Part shown: in pieces, positions 1 to 47,700 of the stretch
Layout: the number at the start of each line of letters is the position of its first letter
How positions within the stretch are numbered: position 1 is the first letter of the stretch
Assembly (NCBI GenBank): GCA_002104905.1
Contig: MCFE01000635.1
Coordinates: forward strand, 1 to 51,043
Length of the DNA stretch: 51,043 nucleotides
Reading direction: 5' to 3'
Source of the DNA: Basidiobolus meristosporus CBS 931.73
Lineage: Eukaryota; Fungi; Basidiobolomycota
Translations under genes and position numbers: made by a program
The notes under the pieces: generated by a model
What the model was told of the DNA's origin: nothing
What the model saw: the letters and a program-made list of their open reading frames with translations, nothing else
The model's database searches: none

Positions 1-289
1 AGGATTCCCATGCTGCTTTGGAAGTATTTGAGGCATGGATTTGTCCAATGAAGGACTATTGCACATTGATGCATAGGCATTAAAGGCCTTTCTCTCCTTC
101 TCTTGAAGCTTCTCCACATCTTCTGCTGTTCCCCTGGGCTCAATTTCCTTTCCTGTTATTATGTTCCAAAGCTTTCTTTCCTCAAGATGGATCTGCATCT
201 TGATTCTTCAAAGTCTGTAGTTCTTCCCATCAAACCTCTCCTTTACAGGGAAGATGTTGGTATTGCTTTGTTTGCTAGTAGAAGTCATC
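1..289 (-). pseudogene. Ty1/Copia (family B) gag 5' end, decayed
   Basis: Minus-strand translation MTSTSKQSNTNIFPVKERFDGKNYRL*RIKMQIHLEEKKAL matches the Copia gag N-terminal F-x-G-x-NY-x-x-W-x-x-KM pattern; lies directly after PBS and LTR; homologous to 5590-5870. Confidence 0.8.
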
Positions 290-312
290 TTTAGAATAGA
301 TTAAGGCAATTG

Positions 313-324
313 GGGCTCATAACC
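313..324 (-). promoter_or_regulatory. Copia primer-binding site GGTTATGAGCCC (tRNAi-Met anticodon-arm type)
   Basis: Exact 12-mer abutting the LTR end at 325; same site at 5890-5901 and 21607-21618, and with one mismatch at 43044-43055. Confidence 0.85.
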
Positions 325-692
325 TGTTGCAATTTAAGAAGTGATTTGGATATAAGTAACTTATCAAGAAATAGTGATAATAGTTGAACTGTTTTTCATT
401 CATAAAGAAGCTCAGTATTTATACCTTTGTAGAAGTAATACAGCTGCAACACTAAGTAGGGAGGGTGTCTCAATATTTAGGAGCATTCTGTAACAGTTTC
501 AGGGTTAGTACATAATGTTTGGTAATAGTGCTAATTTGATCCTGACTTTAGGGGAATAATCATAAGATCATATATCCAGAGTAAGTGGCAAAGTTAAGGC
601 AGTAAATTAGTCCTACAGTGACCAAGACTAGTCCACAATTGTTAAGTAAATTTTTAGCTGCTGAATGATACCAAATAGTCCAATATTTCAAA
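325..692 (-). repeat. Copia family B 5' LTR (~365 bp); contains the empty MITE target site AAT at 514-516
   Basis: Homologous end to end with 5902-7005 once the MITE is removed, and with 7836-8012; TGTTG terminus next to the PBS. Confidence 0.75.
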
Positions 693-2519: not shown

Positions 2520-3312
2520 GAAATCTCACCAAATTTGGCATCCCAGCTTTTGATCAGCATCTGACTTTTGCCATCATACACTCTGTGCCCTTTAGTATCT
2601 CAACACTTCCCAAGAAGGATGCCTTTTCTACTCTTTGTTTCCAGAACTGAGTGTTGCTTGTCAGGTAAGTCACAAAAAACATCACTGCCAAAGATCCCAG
2701 GATGCTGTGATCTGGTTTGTTGTCTATATATGCTTTAAAATTGTATAGTGGTGTTATTGGGCATTAATTCTTGATATATACTGTAGTAGCAACAGATTCA
2801 GCCCAACACTTGTAGCACATTCCCTTATCATGTAGCATAAATCTTCCCATCTCTGCAATTACTCTATTTGCACATTCTGCTGATCCATTTTGCTGTGGGC
2901 CATGTGGAATAGTAGTCTGTTGAAGTATAACAGTCAATGAGCAGTACTTTACAAACTTCTTTGGGCAGTATTCCACCTCCCCATTGTGACTTTGAAGTAC
3001 CTTCAATCTACACCCAGTTTGCATTTCTTCCATGCTCATGAAGTTTTTAGACATTCTCAGAGCTTCATCCTTTGTCTTGAGGAAGTATACCCATGTATAT
3101 CTTGTCTTGTCATCAATAAACATTATCAAGTATCTTGTGGCACTAAAGGACAGTGCTTTTATAGGCCCAGTTATATATGAGTGCCAAACCAAAATCATCT
3201 AATGTTAATAACAATGTGCCAACTGATTTGGGTGTTAAACATCTTGGTAGTGTTAACATTAAATACAAATAACTCAAACAACCCTTTTCTATTCCTACCT
3301 CTGATACCAGGC
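2520..3312 (-). pseudogene. Ty1/Copia integrase fragment (gag-pre-integrase to post-integrase)
   Basis: ORF 2764-3198: YLIMFIDDKTRYTWVYFLKTK...QSHNGE...PQQNGSAECANR...WAESVATTVYIKN = rve core; downstream TKGHRVYD motif. Confidence 0.85.
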
Positions 3313-3811
3313 CTTTATCTTTGCCAACACCCCAAGCTTTGATTTTACACCTTTAGTCAACAAACTTTCCAGAATTGCTTATAACAAAGATGACTTTCTA
3401 AAATCTGCTTTTAACAGTTTAAATATTTTTTAGGTTGGTCAAACAAATGCATATCAAGAACTTTGCAACAGTGTTATTGTTTTAACTAAATACATTTCTG
3501 ACTTGGCTAATTAGGTAAATGCCATTTCAACTACTCCACCAGTTGTAAGCATTAGTGCTCCTTCATCATTGGCTCCCATTGAAACTGCTCCAGTTAATAA
3601 GGAACCTGGAGAAACTATTATCAAGGAAGTGGACCAAGTATTGGGTGATAAGAATGTTGTCATGATTATTTGTAAGAATGGCAAGCAAGACTTTGATAAA
3701 TTGGACAAGGAAGATATCCAAAAGATTATGGAAACTATTGGCAAAGATGACGTTTATGTTGCAAACTCTTTGTTTAGTGCTGTTACAAACGTTGCTGCCT
3801 TAAATAAATAA
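3311..3811 (+). pseudogene. Orphan ORF X (~165 codons, two in-frame TAG, 5'-truncated by Copia)
   Basis: The frame of track ORF 3569-3811 stays open upstream to ~3311 except TAG at 3431-3433 and 3512-3514: AFIFANTPSFDFTPLVNKLSRIAYNKDDFLKSAFNSLNIF*VGQTNAYQELCNSVIVLTKYISDLAN*VNAISTTPPVV...VAALNK. No recognisable domain. Confidence 0.55.
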
Positions 3812-3884
3812 TTGTTGTGTGCATGATCATATCAACTTTTGATTATTAGACTTTGTAAAAAGTGTTTTTTATCAGATGTTAATA

Positions 3885-4240
3885 TTTTAGATCAAACATA
3901 TCTTATATTAAACTTGAGTGTAAAAAACTTTTTTAAAACAAACTTATCTTGGATCAAACCTCAACGTCTAAACCTGTTTTAAAACAAACTTATCTTGGAT
4001 CAAACCTAAATGTCTAAACCTGTTTTAAAACAAACTAACTTATCTTAGATATAACTCATCTTGGATCGAACTAACTAACTTATCTCATACTAAACTTAAG
4101 CGTATAAAACATTTTTAAAACTAACTAACTCATCTCATATTAAACTTAAGCGTTTAAAGCTAACTAACTCATCTCATATTAAACTTGAGCGTATAAAACT
4201 TTTTAAAACTAACTAACTTATCTTGGATCAAACCTAAACT
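3885..4240. repeat. Modular AT-rich tandem repeat
   Basis: 46-bp unit twice (3931-3976, 3977-4022; 2 mismatches), then shuffled modules AACTAACT, TTATCTTGGATCAAACCT and CTCATATTAAACTTRAGCGTATAAAAC. Confidence 0.9.
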
Positions 4241-4319
4241 TCAACACCTAAAATACTTCTGTCTTCCATGCCCACACCTTTTAAAAAATAACTTCTTACC
4301 TTCTTCAACCATTCCCCAT

Positions 4320-5027
4320 TTAGGGATACCACATTATTGGCATTGTCTCCACCTCATATACCAACATCTCATTCATCCTTATAAATATATTCTCCTCCTC
4401 AAACTTTTTATCCAACCCATTCATATCCCCTATCTTCCCCACTTTTATCAAATACTTTGACCCTATGCAATCTGCTAAATTTATTGCATCCTTCCCTATT
4501 AATATTGTTACTATTCTCCCTCCCCTCTTCACATATATATACTTTAACAGCTCCCTTGTAAACTCTTCCCACAATATTCTATGATTTGCCAAAAATTTAT
4601 CACAATTCACCCCCATCGTAAATCCTACGTTTATCATAAACACCCACTGTGATACCCATTGTCTTAACATCTCTTTTGGCTATGGCATATCTACCTCATA
4701 CTCTAACCCTACTTTCTTTGCCATTAATATTGCCTCCATTGGATTCTTCCTACACTCCAATGACGGTATTAACTCTATCCCTGACGCATACTCTACCCCT
4801 GTCACATTACACACACTATTATACTGCTCTTTACACACTATTACCACCTTTATCTTATCCGGTTCCATCAGTCTTAACATCCTAAACACATTTTTCTTCT
4901 TTGGCAACACTTCCAATTTTGACTCTTTTAACATCTTTAATACTCTCCTCAGTATATCCATGTTCTTCTCAAAAGATTCTTCCCACCTTTTTATCATCAT
5001 GAATATTTCACCTACCAAATCTTCCAT
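4320..5027 (-). pseudogene. Uracil-DNA glycosylase (family 1 UNG)-fold gene, catalytic residues replaced, one premature TAG
   Basis: Track ORFs 4680-5048 and 4320-4670 are in the same frame, separated only by TAG 4682-4680 plus 3 codons; ATG at 5027 gives ~235 codons. UNG motifs in order: VLPKKKNVFRML, IKVVIVCKEQY, TGVEYAS, IPSL, QWVSQWVFMIN, NHRILWEEFTRELL, ILIGKDA, FIRMNEML..PIMW. Confidence 0.8.
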
Positions 5028-5148
5028 CCTTGATGACAAATATACCAAGCTTTACCTCTAAAAACTTATCAATAATGAGAATACCTCCGTTCTTGTTAAA
5101 AATAATATTATTTCTACCAACAAACAAAATCAAAACCTTTTTTATATA
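5008..5148 (-). CDS. 3' end of an orphan ORF Y overlapping the UNG-like start, 5'-truncated
   Basis: 46 open codons YIKKVLILFVGRNNIIFNKNGGILIIDKFLEVKLGIFVIKDGRFGR*; its TGA (5010-5008) lies just downstream of the UNG-like ATG; composition similar to that gene. Below the ORF-track length cut-off. Confidence 0.4.
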   Translation of the reverse strand, partial: YIKKVLILFVGRNNIIFNKNGGILIIDKFLEVKLGIFVIKDGRFGR

Positions 5149-5889
5149 CTAAATTCTGTCAAAAATTCCTTTATGCCAGCTCCTGAAATGTTGCCTAGCT
5201 TTTTTGCTATATGCACAACCCTTACATACATTCAATATGATTGAAACTGAGTAATATAAGCCAAGACAAATTGCTTTTTCACCAAATAGCTCATTTTCTA
5301 TCCCCCAATGCGTCTTAGCCTTCTATGGCATGTCTCCCTGTTTGTTTCCTCAGTTTCAGCAATGTAGACATACACAGGTACAATGATCTTGCATTGTAAC
5401 CTATGTATCTTTTCTTCATCATTTACACCAGCATTAATAAAGTAAAGTTCTTCTGGTAGTGGCTCCAATTGGGTAATAAGTGGTAGCATGTCATCATTTG
5501 GCTTCTTCCTCATGCTGAAGAACTTTTATTTCAATTAAAGCTTGCTTGATACTGACTTTGCTCTAAAGATCTACTTCAAGGACTCACATTTTGCGTTGGC
5601 AGTATTTGAAACATGGATTTATCCAATGAAGGGATCTTTCACATTGATACAAATGGCATTAAAGACCTTTCGCTCCTTCTCTTAAAACTTCTCCACTTCT
5701 TCTGCTGTTTCTATGGGCTTAACTTCTTTTCCTGCTACTATATTCTAAGTGTCCTTTCCTCAAGGTCAATCTGCATCCTAATTCTCCAAAGTCTGTAGTT
5801 CTTCTCATCAAACCTCTCCTTCACAGGGAAGGTGATTGCTTATTCTGTTTGCTGGTAGAAGCCATCTTTAGATTAGGCTAAGGCAATCA
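5149..5889 (-). pseudogene. Copia family B gag / gag-pre-integrase remnant with internal deletion
   Basis: Decayed KVFNAICINVKD...KFFSMRKKPNDDM (gag) joined to CHRRLRRIGG...GCAYSKKARQHF (WHRRLGH...CxxC). Confidence 0.7.
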
Positions 5890-5901
5890 GGGCTCATAAC
5901 C
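5890..5901 (-). promoter_or_regulatory. Copia PBS GGTTATGAGCCC
   Basis: Exact 12-mer abutting the LTR at 5902. Confidence 0.85.
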
Positions 5902-7005
5902 TGTTGCAATTTAAGAATTAATTTGCATAAAAGGAACTCATTAAGAAATATTGATAATAGTTGAACTGTTGTTTATCAATAAAGAAGCCCAGTATTTATA
6001 CCTTTGTTAGGGTAAAATCAATCCAACACTAAGTAAAGAGGGTTTCTCAATATTCCGTAGCATTCTGCAACAATTTCAGGGTTAGTACATAATAGACTTG
6101 TTCCGTTGGATGGTGCCACATTGAGCCATGAGTGCCAAATGATGCCATAGTGTGCCAGGGAGGCCAAATGAGCCTATACTTGGCCACTGAGTGTGAAACA
6201 GAGCTCAGCATCTTCATGCAAAGCTGCCCCTGTGTTTCACTCATGATGTAGCAGAAAATCCATTTTTTGACCTTTTTTTTTAGGTCAATGTAGTGCAGGA
6301 TGTGTAAGAGCACAGAAGAACTGAAGATATGCATCAGGTACGCAATACCCATGGCACTCTGAATCTAGCTCCTGTGGCTTGTAGCATGTCACAAAAATGC
6401 ATGGCACTATCTTGGTCCACTGGTACTATCTGGCACTCTATTTAATTATTAGCCCTAAAGTAAGATCTATACAAAGCAATTATAGTGCCAGCTAGTACCA
6501 GTGGACCAAGATAGTGCCATGCATTTTTGTGACATGCCACAAGCCACAGGAGCTAGATTCAGAGTGCCATGGGTATTGCGTACCTGATGCATGTCTTCAG
6601 TTCTTCTGTGCTCTTTCACATCTTGCACAACATTGATCCACAAAAAAACATCAAAAAATGGATTTTCTGCTACATCATAGGTGAAACACAGGGGCAGCTT
6701 TGCATGAAGATGCTAAGCTCTGTTTCACACTCTGTGGCCAAGTATAGGCTCATTTGGCCTCCCTGGCACACTATGGCATTATTTGGCACTCATGGCTCAA
6801 TGTGGCACTATCCAACAGAACAAGTCTAATGCTTGGTAAAAGTGCTAGTTCAATCTTGACCGTAGGCAACTAACAATACAACAATAGACTTGAAGAAAGT
6901 AGCAAAGTTAGGGCTGTAAGTTAGTCCTAATGTGAACATGACTAGTGCAAGTTTATTAAGTAAATTTAGATGCCAAATGATACCAAATAGTCCAATATTT
7001 CTACA
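5902..7005 (-). repeat. Copia family B LTR interrupted by a MITE; has a PPT upstream and a PBS downstream
   Basis: TG...CA ends; matches 325-692; preceded on the minus strand by RNase H end and purine tract (7016-7006), followed by PBS and gag. Confidence 0.75.
6094..6827. mobile_element. 734-bp palindromic MITE of the AGACTTGTTC (PHIS) family, TSD AAT
   Basis: AAT|AGACTTGTTC...GAACAAGTCT|AAT (6091-6093, 6828-6830); empty paralogous site with a single AAT at 514-516; ~345-bp inverted arms. Confidence 0.92.
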
Positions 7006-9786: not shown

Positions 9787-12700
9787 ATGTCGGACAATCA
9801 AGAATGGAAGAATGCCATGCAGCAAATCCTGGCCCAACAGCAACAGCTACTCCAGATCCTCAGCCAACAGCAACAAGGAATGACTACCATGGCTCAGAGC
9901 CAGCAAAGCCCTGTCAAGAGCAACTTTAGTGTGAAGGTCAACCGGTACCATGGCAGAGTCAATGAAAACCTGGGAACTTGGCTCTTTCAGATTGAAGAAG
10001 CTTTTAAAGCTAAAGGAATTGCTCCAGAGAGCAAGTTGCATTATGCAGCTTCTTACCTGGCAGATGCAGCTTTACAGTGGTACCACAACAAGATCAGGTC
10101 AGCTACTATGATGGGATGCTCTACAATCTCTACCTGGGATGAGTTTGTGTCGGAAATTCAGGATGCTTTTGAACCTCCACACCAGCAGACACTACTAAGA
10201 AGGAAGTTAAAGACACTCAGACAGAAAGGAATGGTGCAAGAATACATCTATGAGTACAGATGTCTACTTGGACAAATTGAAAGAATGGACCCCTTGGATC
10301 AAGTTGAATACTTTATTGATGGGTTGAAAGAAAGAACTCGCAAGGAAGTCAATTACCGAAGACCTCAGACTATTGAAGAAGCCATCAAGATTGCCATTGA
10401 CTATGACTCAGCTATGTTTGGAGTTGGGAAGCCTACAGTGACTAGTCAGAAAGGCTATAATCATTATGAAAGAAGACAATCAGAAGCAGTACCAATGGAA
10501 ATAGACGCTATGCAGAAGAATCCCTCCTCAGAAGAATGCAAGAAGAGAGGACTTTGCTTCAATTGCCACCAGCAGGGACATATTGCAAAGTACTGCCCTC
10601 AGAGAAAAAATGGACACCAGCCAACAAGAACCTTCAACCATATTGAGTCCCATGAACACAGTAATGTGGAAGATGAGCTTGAAGAAGACTCGGAACTCAC
10701 CTTCCATATGACAGAAGAGTACTTGTCCCAAATGACTTCAAACTCAGGGAAGTTATTGTACCTGAATGGAGCAATCAATGGAGTACCTGCCAAGATCATG
10801 ATTGACTCAGGAGCATCGCATGAGTACATGTCAGAGCAATTTGCTTTGAAAGCTGGAATCAATTCGGAACCTACCAAATCAACTTCAGTCTCCACAGCTG
10901 ATGGGAACTCCCACATAATCAACCGTATTACCCAGCCAGTAAGAATGAAGATCAATGACTATGAAGAAGACCTACAGGCTTATATATTTGGGAACTGCAA
11001 GTTTGACCTTGTACTTGGGAAAACCTGGCTATTTTGTCGTAATCCATCAATCAACTGGAGAACCCATGCTACTCAGATCCAAAAAGACAACAAGACCTAT
11101 GAGCTATTACCTGCCAGGCTGGATTTCAACTTGGTCAATTCCAGTGTGTGTGAGACAAGTGAACTTAGCAAGACCCAGTTCTGTAGAGCACTTAGAAAAG
11201 GTACCCAGATGTTCCTCATGGCGGTATTACAGGAGGATTCCTCTATCCCAGCACCCCAGCAGGTCCAGACTCTCTTGAAGAAATATTCAGACGTGTTTCC
11301 AGATGAGCTTGTAAGCCTACCACCAGTCAGAGACGTGGATCATGCCATTGACACAGGAGATAGCCCTCCAGTGAGCAAGACACCTTACAGAATGAGTCCA
11401 TTGGAATTGGAGGAAATGAAGAAACAAATTGATCAGCTATTGGAGCAAGGATACATCAGGCCCAGCAAGTCACCTTGGGGAGCACCAGTGCTTTTTGTGA
11501 AAAAGAAGGATGGAACACTTAGGATGTGCATTGACTACAGAGCCCTGAACTCAGTTACCGTCAAGAATAAGTACCCCATACCTCGGATTGATGAGCTTTT
11601 GGACCAACTTAATGGAGCCACTATTTTCAGCAAGATCGACCTCATGTCAGGATACAACCAGATTAGGGTGAAACCAGAAGATATCCCTAAGACAGCATTC
11701 AGGACCAGATATGGACATTACGAGTACTTAGTCATGAGTTTTGGCCTCACTAATGCCCCTGCAACATTCATGACGCTGATGCAGACTGTCTTTCAGGAGT
11801 ACTTAGACAAGTTTGTGATAATCTACCTGGATGACATATTGATATACAGCAAGACAGAAAAGGATCACATGGTGCACATTGAAAAGGTCTTGAAGAAACT
11901 AAGAGAGAACAAGCTATACGGCAAGCTAGCCAAGTGTGAATTCTTCAAGGAACACGTAGAATATCTGGGACACATAGTGACTAGCACAGGAGTAACCTTA
12001 GACCCCAAGAAGGTGGAAGTAATCAAGAATTTGAAGCAGCCCCATAGCATATCAGAACTCAGATCCTTCCTTGGGATGGTTTCCTATTATCGGAGATTTG
12101 TCAAGTCATTTGCAAGTATTGCAGCCCCTTTAACTGATATCCTCAAGAAAGACAATACCTACAAGTGGGACATAGCTTGTGAGACTGCCTTCCAGACACT
12201 AAAGAATGAACTTGCTAAGCTGCCAAGCTTAAGAATACCTGACTTCAGAAAAGAGTTCACTCTGTGCACAGATGCTTCAGATTATGCAATTGGTGGAGTG
12301 CTGAGCCAAGAACACGAGGGAAAGGACTACCCTGTTGCCTTTGAATCCAAGAAACTGAACTCAGCAGAACAAAACTATCCAGTTCATGAGAAGGAGATGC
12401 TTGCTATAATACACTGTTTGAAGACATGGAGATGCTATATTGAAGGAGTCAAATGCACTGTGAAGACTGATCATGCCTCCCTCAAGTATATATTTACTCA
12501 GAAGGTACTCTCTAGAAGAATGACAAGATGGAGTGAGTACATTCAGCAATTTGACCTGGAGATTGTCTACTGTCCTGGAAAAAACAACACGGTTGCTGAT
12601 GCCTTATCAAGATTAGATCAAGTTGCACAACTCAACTTGGTGCATGAATCAGATTGGCCTAGCCTATTACCAAAGTACTTGGAGGACCAAGCCATTCCTA

Positions 12701-13920
12701 ATGAGGTGGATGAAGATATCAAGAAGATAATCCGTGATGAGGCCAGCAAATTTGTTGTACAGAATGAAACACTCTACCAAATTGTTGATGGAAGCCCTAT
12801 TGCCTATTGTCCTTATGTTGCTCGCCTGGATTTAATACATAAGCTACACAATGGATATGGACATCTTGGGATTGAAGGAACCTATAGCCTTGTAAAAGCC
12901 AGAGCATGGTGGCCCAGAATGAAACAAGACATTGAGAAGCTAGTAAAAACATGCCCAAACTGCCAAATCAATCAAGGCCAGCCACAAAGAATTGCCGAAC
13001 TCTTCCCTTTGGAGCCTGTAAGACCATTTGAGAGATGGGGAATTGACTTTATTGGAAGACTGCCAACTACCAGGAAATGCAACCGTTGGATCCTAGTAGC
13101 AATTGACCATGCCACTAAATGGCCAGTTGCTAAAGCTGTACCAATAGCCAGTGAACAAGAAGTTGCAAGTTTCATTTACCATGAGATCCTGATGAAGTTT
13201 GGATGCCCTGTGGAGATCTTATCCGATAGAGGTGCAAACTTTATGGCAAAGACATTAGAGGCTTACCTGGAAATGCAGCAGATCAGACACTTGAAAACCT
13301 CGGCATATCACCCCAGAACTAATGGAGTCACTGAGCGGTTTAATGGATTATTTGGAAAAATGCTGACCAAGTATGCAAATGGAGTTGTCAGTAGATGGGA
13401 TGAGTATATAGACCAAGCACTCTTTGCATGCAGAGTCAGAGTACACAACACCACCCAGCAATCACCATTTTACTTAGTTTATGGATGTGAACCAAGGATT
13501 CCAGGAGATCTCACACAACCAAAGCTTACAGACACCTTAGAAGATGAACTCAGTCAGCCAAGTAGACACCAGCAACTGGAACAAAGACGTCAAGAGGCAC
13601 AGACCAAAGTATCTCAAAGTGCAGAAAAGATGAAGCAGAGATTTGATAAGACTATAGCACCAGAAGCATTGACAGTTGGGAACTTTGTATTGCTAAGAAA
13701 CAACACTCGGAAGAAGTTTGAGCCACAATGGACAGGACCATTCAAGATCATCAGAGAATGTCCATTTGCAACTTACCAACTGGTGGACAAGCAAGGTAAT
13801 ATCCGGGAAGACTTAGTGCATAGGGACAGACTCAAGCTTGCAAGACTTGCTGATAATACTGAACCATCAAGATATTGGTATCACAAGAAAAGAGATTCAG
13901 GAGAACCCTCTCAACTTTAG
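9787..13920 (+). CDS. gag-pol: Gag-Pol polyprotein, 1377 aa, single ORF (capsid, CCHC knuckle, PR, RT, RNase H, IN with GPY/F; no chromodomain)
   Basis: [14 protein letters not shown]; MIDSGAS; [11 protein letters not shown] and YLDDILI; [12 protein letters not shown]; H..GH...CPNC, IDFIG, SDRG, ERFN; WTGPFKI. Confidence 0.97.
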
Positions 13921-31381: not shown

Positions 31382-32200
31382 TTATGCTTCATGATGCTCC
31401 AGACACATTTCTCTCAGTGGATGGCTTCTTGTATGAGCATACTGTGCATTAATAAGTATCTTAACTATTTTACCAATTCTGCTGTTTTCTCCTATAAATG
31501 ACTTTTCTCTGTATTTACCTGCCAATATGCTGAATCTCTTCAGATATCCAAATGTGTGCTCCACCCTCACTATGAAATGATTAAATATCTCATTGTAGGG
31601 CTTCTGCTTCCTGCTAAGCACACCGTTCCTTGGCTTCCTATAAGCTGTAATACATCTTAATCTGTGAAAATCCTCTCCTATATAGGCTAAGTCTGACATA
31701 CATTTCTCCCCTCTACTGAATTCAGGATGATTCTCTACCCAGAGTGCTTTGTCATGCCTACTTCCAGCATATGGCCCACTAAACCAGATGATGTTACCGT
31801 CAATGTCAGACAGTGCTTGAAACTTCACACAGTGTGCCTTGTACTTGCCGGAATAAAAGTGCCTCTGCCCTCTAGAAGGTCTGTTGATCCTCACTGGGAA
31901 GGTATCCAAAATACTCCTGATATGAAACCTGTTGCTGAACACTCTGGGATATGGAAGTCTATTGGAGCTTCTGAACCTAGTATTCCAAGCTTGCTCCAAG
32001 TCATTCATACACTCTGCAAGGTGGTTCTCCATTGCTGTCAGCTAGGAATGAAAACTTCTAGGACTTTTGTTGACATGGATGGTGGGATAAAACCTTGTAG
32101 GGCAATAGTTCTTGTAATAGCAGAGAAGCTTAACAAGGGATCTCCTTGAGTAGATTGGGGTAGATGGTCCACAGCACTTGGATTAGATCTCCTCTAGTGT
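31382..32200 (-). pseudogene. DDE_Tnp_4 (PHIS / IS5-like) transposase
   Basis: ILDTFPVRINRP, FYSGKYKAHCVKFQALSDIDG, YAGSRHDK, SDLAYIG, RVEHTFGYLKRFSIL (D-D-E triad). The frame extends upstream past a TAG at 32044-32042 into an HTH-like LVKLLCYYKNY segment. Confidence 0.88.
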
Positions 32201-38849: not shown

Positions 38850-39649
38850 TTCCAAGTGCTGTGGACCATCTACCCCAATCTACTCAAGGAGATCCCTTGT
38901 TAAGCTTCTCTGCTATTACAAGAACTATTGCCCTACAAGGTTTTATCCCACCATCCATGTCAACAAAAGTCCTAGAAGTTTTCATTCCTAGCTGACAGCA
39001 ATGGAGAACCACCTTGCAGAGTGTATGAATGACATGGAGCAAGCTTGGAATACTAGGTTCAGAAGCTCCAATAGACTTCCATATCCCAGAGTGTTCAGCA
39101 ACAGGTTCCATTTCAGGAGTATTATAGATACCTTCACATGAGGATTACAGACCTTCTAGAGGGCAGAGGCACTTTTATTCTGGCAAGTACAAGGCACACT
39201 GTGTGAAGTTTCAAGCACTGTCTGACATTGAGGGTAACATCATCTGGTTTAGTGGGCCATATGCTGGAAGTAGGCATGACAAAGCACTCTGGGTAGAGAA
39301 TTATCCTGAACTCAGTAGAGGGAAGAAATGTATGTCAGACTTAGCCTATATAGGAGAGGATTGTCACAGATTTGGATGTATTACAGCTTATAGGAAGCCA
39401 AGGAATGGTGCACTTAGCAGGAAGCAGAGGCTCTACAATGAGATATTTAATCATTTCAGAGTGGGGGTAGAGCACACACTGGGATATCTGAAGAGATTCA
39501 GCATATTGGCAGGTAAACACAGAGGAAAGTCATATATAGGAGAAAACAGCAGAATTGGTAAAATAGTTAAGATACTTATTAATGCACAGTATGCTCATAG
39601 AAGAAGACCTCCACTGAGAGAAATGTGTCTGGAGCATTATGAAGAGTAA
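38850..39649 (+). pseudogene. DDE_Tnp_4 transposase, copy P1 (frameshifted near 39140)
   Basis: Paralog of 31382-32200; track ORF 39203-39649. Confidence 0.88.
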
Positions 39650-44774: not shown

Positions 44775-47700
44775 TGTTGTAAGAGTCTTGGAGATATTGG
44801 AAGTGATTGGGAGAACAAGTATATTATGTGGTTTTCACTTAATGATTTATTGAATGTAAAAGTAGTATTTATACTTTTACCTAGTCTTAGCATTACAAAC
44901 ACATAGAATAGGTTACAAAAGGTCCCAAGAGCATGTGTGCAAAGTTTGGGGCTGTTTGGACAACTTTGAGAATTTTCATGTTCTGGGTACCTGATTTTTG
45001 GTGAAAATATTCTAAGTAAATCCCAACAAGGAATTTGGTCAGTATTCTCTAGGATTTAAGGGTAATGATCTGAGTGACTAAGTTAGGTGAATATTTAGGT
45101 GGAATTACAAATTTTTACAACACTCCCACTCAGCTAAATGTTCATACTGACTAGTCCTAATTTTGACCTAAGATATTCAAACTTGTCGCTAGCTAATGGT
45201 TTGGTGAATATGTCTGCAATCATTTCATCTGTGGGACAGTAAACTAAGCTAACTAAGTTATTCTCTATAGCTTCACGTATGAAATGATGTCTAATATCTA
45301 TGTGCTTGGTTCTAGCATGAAAAGTTGGATATCTACCTAGTTGTATACATCCTTGATTATCTTGAAATAAAGTAATAGGTGTTTTGTGACATAGGCCTAA
45401 ATCTGTAAAAAGCTTTCTTAACCACATTGCTTCTTTTGTAGCTTCACAGGCTGCTATATACTCTGCCTCTGTGGTGGAAAGTGCTATGGTTTGTTGCATT
45501 CTTGAGTTCCATGAAATTGCTCCTTGACAGTAAAGAAAAGTTTATCCCATGGTGGATCTTCTGTCTTCTAAATTTTGTCCCCAATCTGCATCAGAGTATC
45601 CCACAAGATCTTGTTCTGAGTTCTTGTAAGTGTATCTTAAGCAAATATCAGCAGTTCCTTTTAGGTATCTAAAAATCCGCTTAACTGCTGCAATATGATC
45701 AGATCCATAGTTCTGATTATGTTGGCTGACAACTCCCACTGAATATGAGATATCTGGACGTGTTCCAAGCATGATATACACCAGACTGATGACCATAGAT
45801 TGATAAGGAAAGTTAGGGCTTTCAGATGGCACCAAGCTCTCTTGATTTGGTTGAGTTTTGACCAAGTTAAGGTTTGTCTCCATTGGGGTAGCTGCTGGTT
45901 TACAGTCTTCCATTTTGTACTTATTTAGTATATCTTGAATATACTGGGACTGACTTAGGGTGATAGTCTGGGTACTTCTGTCTATGGAGAACTTAATCCC
46001 TAAGTAGTAACTAAGTTCTCCTAGATCAGACATCTTGAACTCCTTAGATAGGCTGGATTTAGTCTCTTCCAATGTTTCTAGGTTATTGGCAGCTATAATA
46101 AGATCATCCACATATAGAGCTAATAGAACTGGATTTGCTCTACCTGGCTTATAGTGTATACTATAGTCAGCATTACTTCTTTTTAAACTAAAGGATTACA
46201 AATAAGAATCTATCTTGCAATTCCTGGCTCTTGGTGATTGATTGAGACCATATAGTGACTTTTTAAGCTTGCAGACCAAATGGGGGTTATCTTGGTCAAC
46301 AAACCCATCAGGCTGGTCCATATACACATCCTCATCAAGTTCTCCATTCAAAATGCAGTTTTTACATCCATTTGATGAATAAAAAACTTATTTTTGGCTG
46401 CAATAGCCAATATTAATCTGATGGAATTAAACTTGGCTACTGGTGCAAAGGTCTCAGTATAGTCAAGTCCTTTTGTTTGAGAGTATCCATTGGCCACAAG
46501 TCTTGCTTTGTATCTTTCAATTGTACCATCAGCCTTGTATTTTGTCTTGAAGACCCATCTGCATCCAATTGATTTTTGGTTGATTGGTAATTTGACTAAG
46601 TCCCAAGTTTGATTTTCCATCAGGGCCTGATATTCCTCAATCATTGCAGATCTCCAAAACTTTGTCTGAGGGCTATTTAGGGCCTCTTTTACAGTCTGGG
46701 GTTCATCAATATGGACTGAATAGGCATAGGCTAAGTTTGTACCCTCATTGATATAGTAATTTGGGCTATTTCTTGTCCAATTGGATCTCCGGGCATTTGA
46801 TACTGGAATGATCACTTCTGGGATATTCCTGGGCACTAATTCTGGCTGAACCATGGTTGTAGAGTCCTCTGGAGTGAAAAATTTTCATTGTTTTTCCTTG
46901 ATTCAATCCTGACAATTGGTGGACTTAAGATCAGATTTTTGTCATCATCTGATGGCATTTCTTGTGAAAATTTTGAATTTTCATCAATCAACACATCCCT
47001 GGACTTGATCAGCTTCTTTGCTTTTGTATTGTAGAGTCTGTATGCCTTACTCTCATTGTAGTAGCCCAAAAATATGCATTTTACACTTTTTGGCTCAAAT
47101 TTTGACTGATTTCCAGCCAGTTTTTTGGCATATGCTGTACACCCAGATATTCTTAGATGTTCTGCACTTGGTCTGTATCCATACCATGCTTCAAGTGGAG
47201 TAGAATCACAAAGTATTCTGTTATAACTCCTATTTTTAAGGTATACAGCAGTGGCAACTGATTCCGCCCAAAAATCATGGGATAATCTTTGATCATGGAT
47301 CATAGATTTTGCCACATCAATGATTGATCTGTTAGCTCATTCTGCTACTCCATTTTGCTGTGGGGAGTATGGTACAGTGGTCTCTTGCTTTATCCCATGA
47401 ATTTTGCAGAAGTGGATGAAGAGTTTTGAGGTATACTCTCCACCATTGTCAAAGCATATTTTCTTGATTTTTTCACCAGTTTCTCCCTCCACCATGGCTT
47501 TAAACTCCCTGAGCTTAGACAGAGCTTCTTCCTTTCTCTCCATGAAGTAGGCCCATGTGTATCTTGTATTATCATCAATAAAAGTGATTAAATACTTCAT
47601 CCTGCCTAAGGATAAATTTTGCATAGGTCCACAGAGATCTGAGTGAATTAGATATAATATTTTCTTAGTTTTGATTAACTCAGAGCTCTTGAACGGCTGT

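Follow-up and report, generated by a model that had tools for sequence, protein, structure and literature searches.

Fundsalphaviruses are endogenous, Pithovirus-related NCLDVs described from 14 fungal species (Gong, Zhang and Han 2020, PMC7017919). In the gene maps of that paper's supplement, UDG labels occur in 11 rows, once beside TFIIS and once in the order RPB2-D5-ZnF_C2C2-UDG...HET, and PCNA is labeled a single time, in a row whose gene names are of baculovirus type (PMC7017919). NCLDV pseudogenes in fungi are already known (PMC13348850, PMC13533422). Two viral uracil-DNA glycosylases (UNGs) are described as having work beyond uracil removal: vaccinia D4 binds A20 and confers polymerase processivity without a need for glycosylase activity (PMC4450493), and the MHV68 UNG binds the polymerase and the processivity factor with no requirement for its catalytic residues (bioRxiv 2023.05.19.541466). 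For the human enzyme, published activities relative to wild type are 0.04% for D145N and 0.32% for H268L (PMC1919486, Table 1).

We analyzed a 51,043-nt stretch of DNA, referred to as the window, in which a UNG-like gene lies on the minus strand. The gene and the sites discussed below are as follows:

4320..5000, minus strand: family-1 UNG homolog of a fundsalphavirus-like clade, very probably a pseudogene in the window copy; open frame from 5027
4821..4835, minus strand: motif 1 site (GQDPY in canonical UNG), here CKEQY; Glu replaces the catalytic Asp, and the fourth position is Pro in other copies
4422..4445, minus strand: His-loop site (HPSP in canonical UNG, HPVxR in most clade members); His absent, also in a stop-free sister
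4969..5148, minus strand: remnant (C-terminus) of a same-strand ORF lying upstream and overlapping the start of the UNG, with one TGA missing from other copies

Positions 5027-4320 comprise 235 codons with a single TAG at codon 116 (counted from 5027). The initial annotation had joined two ORFs across this TAG into a UNG-like protein of about 235 aa, a reading borne out by translation, phmmer, and NCBIfam. The motifs are as it had read them, with CKEQY at codons 65-69, FMIN at 130-133, KVGKIG at 195-200, and PIMW at 230-233. Homology of the predicted read-through protein to UNG is far above chance. When we searched PDB with phmmer, UDGs accounted for 26 of the 28 sequences listed to E 10, the best being mimivirus UNG (E 3.8e-11), and the window protein matched the NCBIfam ung profile at E 2.1e-18, with 67 bits against a cut-off of 185.75. 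A search of 1.84 billion representatives returned 869 proteins at E<=0.001, the top match being P0002 (36% identity, E 2.5e-35). Pfam assigned no family to the read-through protein, and none of 108 candidates from a word-index homolog search reached E<=0.1.

The structure model built with a 33-row alignment (A1) had a pLDDT of 92; a single-sequence model (pLDDT 32) was unusable. As far as a model resting on A1 can tell, the window protein has the UDG alpha/beta fold and the UNG motif order. The UDG fold that had been claimed from the letters also emerged from Foldseek, where the PDB rows listed for the model were UNGs only (E 1e-11, TM about 0.75). The first four rows of a BFVD fold search were Solivirus and Pithovirus UNGs. 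Ranks 29-30 of the same search went to nimavirus proteins resembling wsv427; these matches are weak (E 0.06, prob about 0.9), and the proteins may have a UDG fold that has diverged further. The likely start codon of the UNG is Met10 or Met11 (5000 or 4997), because the ATG at codon 1 is absent from other copies and the first codons are part of the overlapping upstream frame. Third codon positions of window 4323-5027 (minus) were 2% C and 79% purine, a stronger skew than in the five clade genes that we checked (12-25% C).

We placed the window protein in a 63-row tree (LG+G4) made up of 29 near relatives including the window protein, five UNGs from viral contigs, and 29 others, the latter including named bacterial UNGs and canonical GQDPY/HPSP types. 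Clade membership was preselected from a quick tree, and the remaining UNG-like matches lie outside these 63 rows; the letter composition of the window protein row was unusual. The 34 clade rows, window protein included, fell on one side of a branch with support of 100/97. Comparison with other UNGs in a tree had been proposed as a check, and the window protein grouped with virus-contig UNGs, apart from the 29 other rows.

The clade differs from the other rows in its catalytic residues. Asp is kept in 7 of the 34 clade rows versus 28 of the 29 others, and His in 26 of 34 versus 27 of 29. Seven clade rows have lost both residues and six have kept both. Because of those six rows and the 26 that keep His, part of the clade is probably still enzymatic. 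The state at the His site needed five changes on the tree, and the window lineage lost its His independently of the L086/L089 group, because the window's nearest rows (P0002 and P0006) retain His. Among 150 matches listed from a wider set, Asp was present in 10 of 35 clade members versus 99 of 115 others, counts in which relatives are not independent. All 48 rows of alignment A6 share the pocket Asn and the P-Y pair.

Pattern scans yielded ten clade-level loci (two of four in viral contigs and eight of 12 in metagenome contigs); the scan with alignment A2 gave 79 loci, of which the top two only were clade-level. With the window protein, P0002, or P0004 as the query, viral contigs yielded no relatives. 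At nine of the ten clade-level loci, Pfam-confirmed NCLDV-type core genes lay beside the UNG; the tenth, L085, is 2.3 kb long and has one neighbor. These core genes were PolB, a two-piece RPB1, RPB2, RPB5, TFIIS, D5, DUF5757 (which we take to be the early transcription factor large subunit), an SF2 helicase, and FEN1, and the UNG was head-to-head with TFIIS in L080, L081, L086, and L090. Matches to capping enzyme and methyltransferase in the relatives' contigs were weak (E 0.02-0.07). With the gene grouped with virus-contig UNGs (100/97) and its relatives found among NCLDV core genes, the virus-encoded origin that had been proposed was borne out, and we have hardly any doubt that the window gene came from a virus.

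As to the kind of virus, the shared fundsalphavirus set (D5, D6/D11 helicase, methyltransferase, RPB2, RPB5, and split RPB1) was present in the relatives' contigs and not in the window. The window holds no PolB or other core gene, and its family is assigned, provisionally, via the UNG tree only. Among the matches listed from an RPB2 scan, there were only general giant-virus RPB2s, at 26-42% identity. We set aside Mycodnaviridae as the first-choice family because the gene set fits fundsalphaviruses better. HET genes were present at four of the ten clade-level loci. We infer a fungal host for the virus lineage, and given the fungal HET genes of the relatives and the literature, that host was likely an early-diverging fungus.

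The relatives' contigs carried further genes of note. L086, L087, L089, and L091 each had one to four or more HET-domain genes interspersed with core genes. Large proteins with hydrophobic N-termini, one of them with B-lectin, were encoded in the viral core cluster at L081:13967-17737, L080:4231-7647, and L081:6009-8123 (all minus), and these are possible secreted host-interaction proteins. Head-to-head with RPB2 was a conserved gene of 226-259 aa (L177:18963-19640, L090:6990-7730, L087:1918-2646, and L089:2755-3531) that had no credible Pfam match and, among proteins of 226-266 aa compared with PDB, no relative there; it is a candidate single-stranded DNA-binding, clamp, or bridging protein. 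L176 (G001, 17169 nt) encodes PolB (801 aa), a capping enzyme, an SF2 helicase, the N-terminal half of RPB1, a primase-like ORF, UNG, and TFIIS, and in this one searchable 17 kb record we found no capsid or PCNA match. Its ends are 145 nt terminal inverted repeats, members of a dispersed family of intergenic AT-rich repeats, and may be either an assembly break or the true ends of a small linear segment.

We used the UNG genes that have lost both catalytic residues to ask how the protein is conserved. Six such genes, from L085-L089 and L091, are intact, with Ser at the Asp site and either Phe or Ile at the His site. Other intact homologs keep both residues, as P0003 does, or have lost Asp, as the L081 protein has. 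Their dN/dS was 0.036-0.19 in 14 of 15 pairs, with one pair saturated, and the D5 genes on five of the same contigs gave 0.08-0.125 in 8 of 10 pairs; dS was near saturation in many pairs, so these NG86 values are rough. The UNG dN of the double-loss copies (0.09-0.21) was not above the D5 dN. Because both residues are lost, because conservation is like that of the D5 helicase, and because single human mutants retain <0.4% activity, the double-loss protein would most simply be kept for a job other than uracil removal. It is quite likely that the protein of this lineage lacks useful glycosylase activity.

In the window protein, the catalytic Asp of GQDPY is absent, with Glu67 in its place, and so is the catalytic His of HPSP, where the window has Lys198. 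Codon 198 of the stop-free sister differs from the window only synonymously and encodes the same Lys, so the sister loop lacks His as well. Both Gly and Gln of motif 1 are likewise substituted in the window lineage. Tyr69 and Asn133 of the uracil pocket are present. The alignment column that we take to be the stacking Phe of that pocket, which is nearly invariant, holds Leu86. As to CKEQY, the initial annotation had the letters right, including Glu for Asp, and had overstated the rewriting, as other copies have Pro68 and the P-Y pair is kept in the lineage. Since none of the differences listed at codons 65-67 was common to the sister contigs (in tables that are partial and omit some differences near contig ends), Glu for Asp is likely shared by the sister copies. 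From these lost motifs and the published human UNG mutants, we infer that the protein of the window lineage would excise uracil little or not at all.

Other copies of the gene distinguish this older loss from the decay of the window copy. At the position of the TAG, run X1 has the window letter, and run X2 of the same sample and runs X5-X7 of one other sample have a sense codon; therefore, stop and stop-free forms both exist. We rejected recoding or read-through of the TAG, given the sense codon at that position in other copies. A gap-free 1096 nt contig of X5 covers the UNG gene, with 41 differences from the window over 4385-4940 (31 of them listed). This sister copy has Pro68 and Gly128, as do 35 of 35 and 33 of 35 clade representatives, respectively; the window has Gln68 and Trp128. 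Across codons 68-204, excluding the stop codon, the two copies differ by 14 synonymous and 15 nonsynonymous changes, for a dN/dS of about 0.26 (p 0.02 versus a transition-aware expectation). Therefore, the gene was under selection for most of the divergence between the two copies; loss of function in the window copy came later. The search for stop-free copies that had been suggested thus succeeded, in X2 and X5-X7. The idea that the window copy itself is a working pseudo-enzyme did not hold up. With its stop and the loss of two near-invariant residues that the sisters retain, it is a decaying fossil and very probably dead.

Judged by these copies, the catalytic loss predates the decay of the window copy, because the sister, under purifying selection, also lacks His. 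The view that the loss was long evolved, and not that of a rotting host ung, is upheld by this sister and by the six intact viral double-loss copies (dN/dS 0.04-0.19).

The initial annotation had described the surroundings as a pure transposon nest. Instead, the UNG gene lies within a low-depth island of about 2 kb (about 3189-5177), which contains other ORFs and a repeat array and is set inside a copia element. The remaining features of the island and its flanks are as follows:

3889..4257, no strand assigned: array immediately 3' of the UNG, made of about seven imperfect, AT-rich units of 39-50 nt
3308..3811, plus strand: second island ORF, 167 codons with two TAG stops, convergent with UNG; also in the other isolate
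5178..5900, minus strand: decayed region whose translation we take to be copia-like gag; island flank, with very high summed depth in X1 and X2
about 2764..3188, minus strand: decayed copia-like integrase region; island flank, Pfam rve E 0.0011 (under the cut-off)

In the two best runs, the summed depth of public contigs on 2600-6100 was about 130-680 across 3185-5173, compared with mostly 1e4-3e5 to both sides. Contigs from the same sample run straight from 3120 or 3188 to 5178 and lack the island. The gag-like flank has an 82.5% copy at window 1-516, and the integrase remnant is similar to copia pol at 47242-47582. Within the island, the array is likely a viral intergenic repeat spacer by analogy with a related virus record, which has AT-rich repeat arrays between genes whose sequence is unlike that of the window array. 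An X5 contig over 3277-3897 covers the second island ORF. The nine differences listed for the upstream ORF remnant at 5005-5116 fall at six third, three first, and no second codon positions (hand count). Neither of these two ORFs gave anything credible in Pfam or among the 95 loci compared.

Elsewhere in the window, 9787-13920 (plus) is an uninterrupted Ty3/gypsy gag-pol ORF of 1377 aa with all domains, likely a recent element. The Ty3 polymerase of the window matches those of many eukaryote elements (42-58% identity at >=97% coverage; Calcarisporiella, 56%). A 351 nt inverted repeat (6093-6443 and 6478-6828) has arms that are 94% complementary and 34 nt apart. Remnants of a DDE_Tnp_4 (Harbinger/IS5-like) transposase occur at 31385-32041 (minus), by scan, with a look-alike at 39128-39649 (minus). 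The CpG observed/expected ratio of the whole window is 0.12.

The sample of X5-X7 also contains a relative of the gene at high depth. A contig over 4821-4932, with 15 differences, had depths of 8474, 9190, and 3499 in X5, X6, and X7 (three runs, one sample), and the gene-spanning contig had depths of 12.2, 12.0, and 6.1 in the same runs. A second X5 piece, over 4440-4670, had a depth of 6622, and by eye its loose end puts a stop at the stop position of the window gene. The contigs of this relative, 13-20% different, were about 500-750 times as deep as the low-copy island contigs (one sample; contig depth is not copy number). Because the ratio was near 600-750 in all three runs, it suggests a free or amplified form. 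We also observed a third, low-depth variant over 4769-4853.

Our best explanation of these observations, to which as a whole we give an even chance, is that a viral UNG gene persists in the window as a decayed copy and that its product would be a non-catalytic replisome subunit in its lineage. A pithovirus-related, fundsalphavirus-like giant virus of early-diverging fungi would have left this UNG-family gene in the window, where integration would have been followed by copia-associated duplication and decay of the island. In the virus lineage, the UNG homolog would bind DNA without catalysis, as a subunit of the viral replication machinery. The least certain step is whether it would hold PolB on DNA, as D4 does via A20, or do some other non-enzymatic job. 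If the protein has no useful glycosylase activity, a replisome role seems to us reasonably likely by analogy, and we put it first because D4 and the MHV68 UNG have catalysis-independent roles there.

We found no A20-like partner for the clade UNG. We also found no PCNA, either in a 35.1 kb clade contig with PolB, D5, and FEN-free core genes, where the ORF scan covered 30.6 kb, or in G001, an absence that weighs little: the contigs are fragmentary, a capsid gene was equally unfound, and divergent clamps can escape Pfam. A PIP-box scan was uninformative, with a C-terminal match in only one of five control PolBs. A more specific version, which we regard as rather doubtful, would have PCNA-less pithovirus-related fungal viruses use the UNG as a pure pseudo-enzyme processivity factor, convergent with poxvirus D4 and with catalysis shed in several branches; one such member would still replicate in a sequenced fungal isolate, with hundreds of copies for each host genome.

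Three other readings share the viral origin. It is unlikely that the protein is a slow or re-specified glycosylase, in which Glu or Ser would serve for Asp, His would be dispensable, and weak repair would be selected. The invariant pocket Asn and P-Y pair are as compatible with weak catalysis or preserved uracil binding as with a role in the fold, and six of the 34 clade rows have both catalytic residues. A His mutant of human SMUG1 retains about 28% activity, so loss of His is not necessarily fatal to a UDG-fold enzyme, whereas each single loss in family-1 UNG brings activity below 0.4% (PMC1919486, Table 1). The window lineage has, in addition, other residues for the motif 1 Gly and Gln as well as Leu for the stacking Phe, and the His site is Lys, Phe, Ile, or a deletion in separate branches, which resembles released constraint and not new chemistry. 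Retention of the pocket Asn and Tyr with loss of the chemistry would also suit a non-catalytic shield or decoy that binds uracil or abasic sites and fends off host base-excision repair. This seems improbable: its place is in the conserved core of replication and transcription genes, with TFIIS, D5, and VETF-like genes, not among the variable HET and lectin genes; the uracil pocket of the window lineage has changed from Phe to Leu; and uracil-rich viral DNA is without support. Quite improbable as well is that a non-catalytic protein was exapted outside replication, for a transcription complex or a virion scaffold. Inactivated enzymes are reported to have been reused in poxvirus morphogenesis (PMC4304020), and the gene is head-to-head with TFIIS at four loci, but the upstream gene in the window is not TFIIS, and the published non-catalytic roles of viral UNGs considered here are in the replisome (PMC4450493, bioRxiv 2023.05.19.541466).

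A diverged retrocopy or domesticated paralog of the host ung would fit the retrotransposon-rich, CpG-depleted region and the gene's position inside a copia element. We rejected it on the 63-row tree, where the window protein stands apart from 29 of 29 other rows with the virus-contig UNGs. The nearest relatives lie among NCLDV core genes, and the gene is surrounded by compact overlapping ORFs and a repeat spacer and has a stop in this copy, leaving a host origin with only the slightest probability.

The window protein is like the family-1 UNGs of mimivirus (5x55/6lyd), E. coli, human, and herpesvirus in its fold, P-Y pair, pocket Asn, W..QG, H...W, and terminal W. It is unlike them in its Asp-to-Glu change, the replaced Gln and Gly of motif 1, Leu for the stacking Phe, the absence of His and the HPSP loop, and a score far under the NCBIfam cut-off. 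Poxvirus D4/A20 and the gammaherpesvirus UNG, with their essential role in DNA synthesis independent of catalysis, serve as a model for what the clade protein probably does. The relation to D4 is distant (E about 1e-13 versus 1e-40 for bacterial and mimivirus UNG), and the natural forms of D4 (PMC4450493) and herpes UNGs are active enzymes, whereas the clade has lost both residues in several branches.

Mycodnaviridae are, like the probable source of the window gene, giant viruses of fungi, both integrated and replicating (Myers et al. 2026, PMC13533422). They differ in being relatives of Imitervirales and Algavirales, of up to 350 kb, that were found by capsid genes in zoosporic fungi, and the main text of that paper contains neither 'uracil' nor 'glycosylase' (PMC13533422). 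The compact split-RPB1 clusters of the clade and the Pithovirus and Solivirus fold matches favor the other fungal group.

That group is the fundsalphaviruses. D5, a D6/D11-like helicase, capping enzyme and methyltransferase, RPB2, RPB5, split RPB1, PolB, TFIIS, FEN1, and HET in the relatives correspond to the mapped set, and premature stops and retrotransposon neighbors, both present at the window locus, have been described there too (PMC7017919). In contrast to that group, the window is without PolB, the group-defining marker. In the accessible parts of the published description, UDG is only a gene-map label, and neither the lost catalytic residues nor selection on the dead forms is mentioned (PMC7017919); nor did we find a publication on catalytically eroded UNGs in fundsalphaviruses, in a search that covered few subscription journals and no figures. 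By itself, the window copy is an ordinary viral fossil. The eroded UNG is apparently an undescribed, repeatedly evolved form of pseudo-enzyme in a known, little-studied virus group. It gives an entry to fungal giant-virus relatives known mainly as fossils, and the high-depth relative hints at a culture with a replicating member (one isolate). Compared with D4 and the herpes UNGs, the clade provides UNGs that grade in nature from intact to single-loss to double-loss, all under purifying selection, in which the second job could be studied alone.
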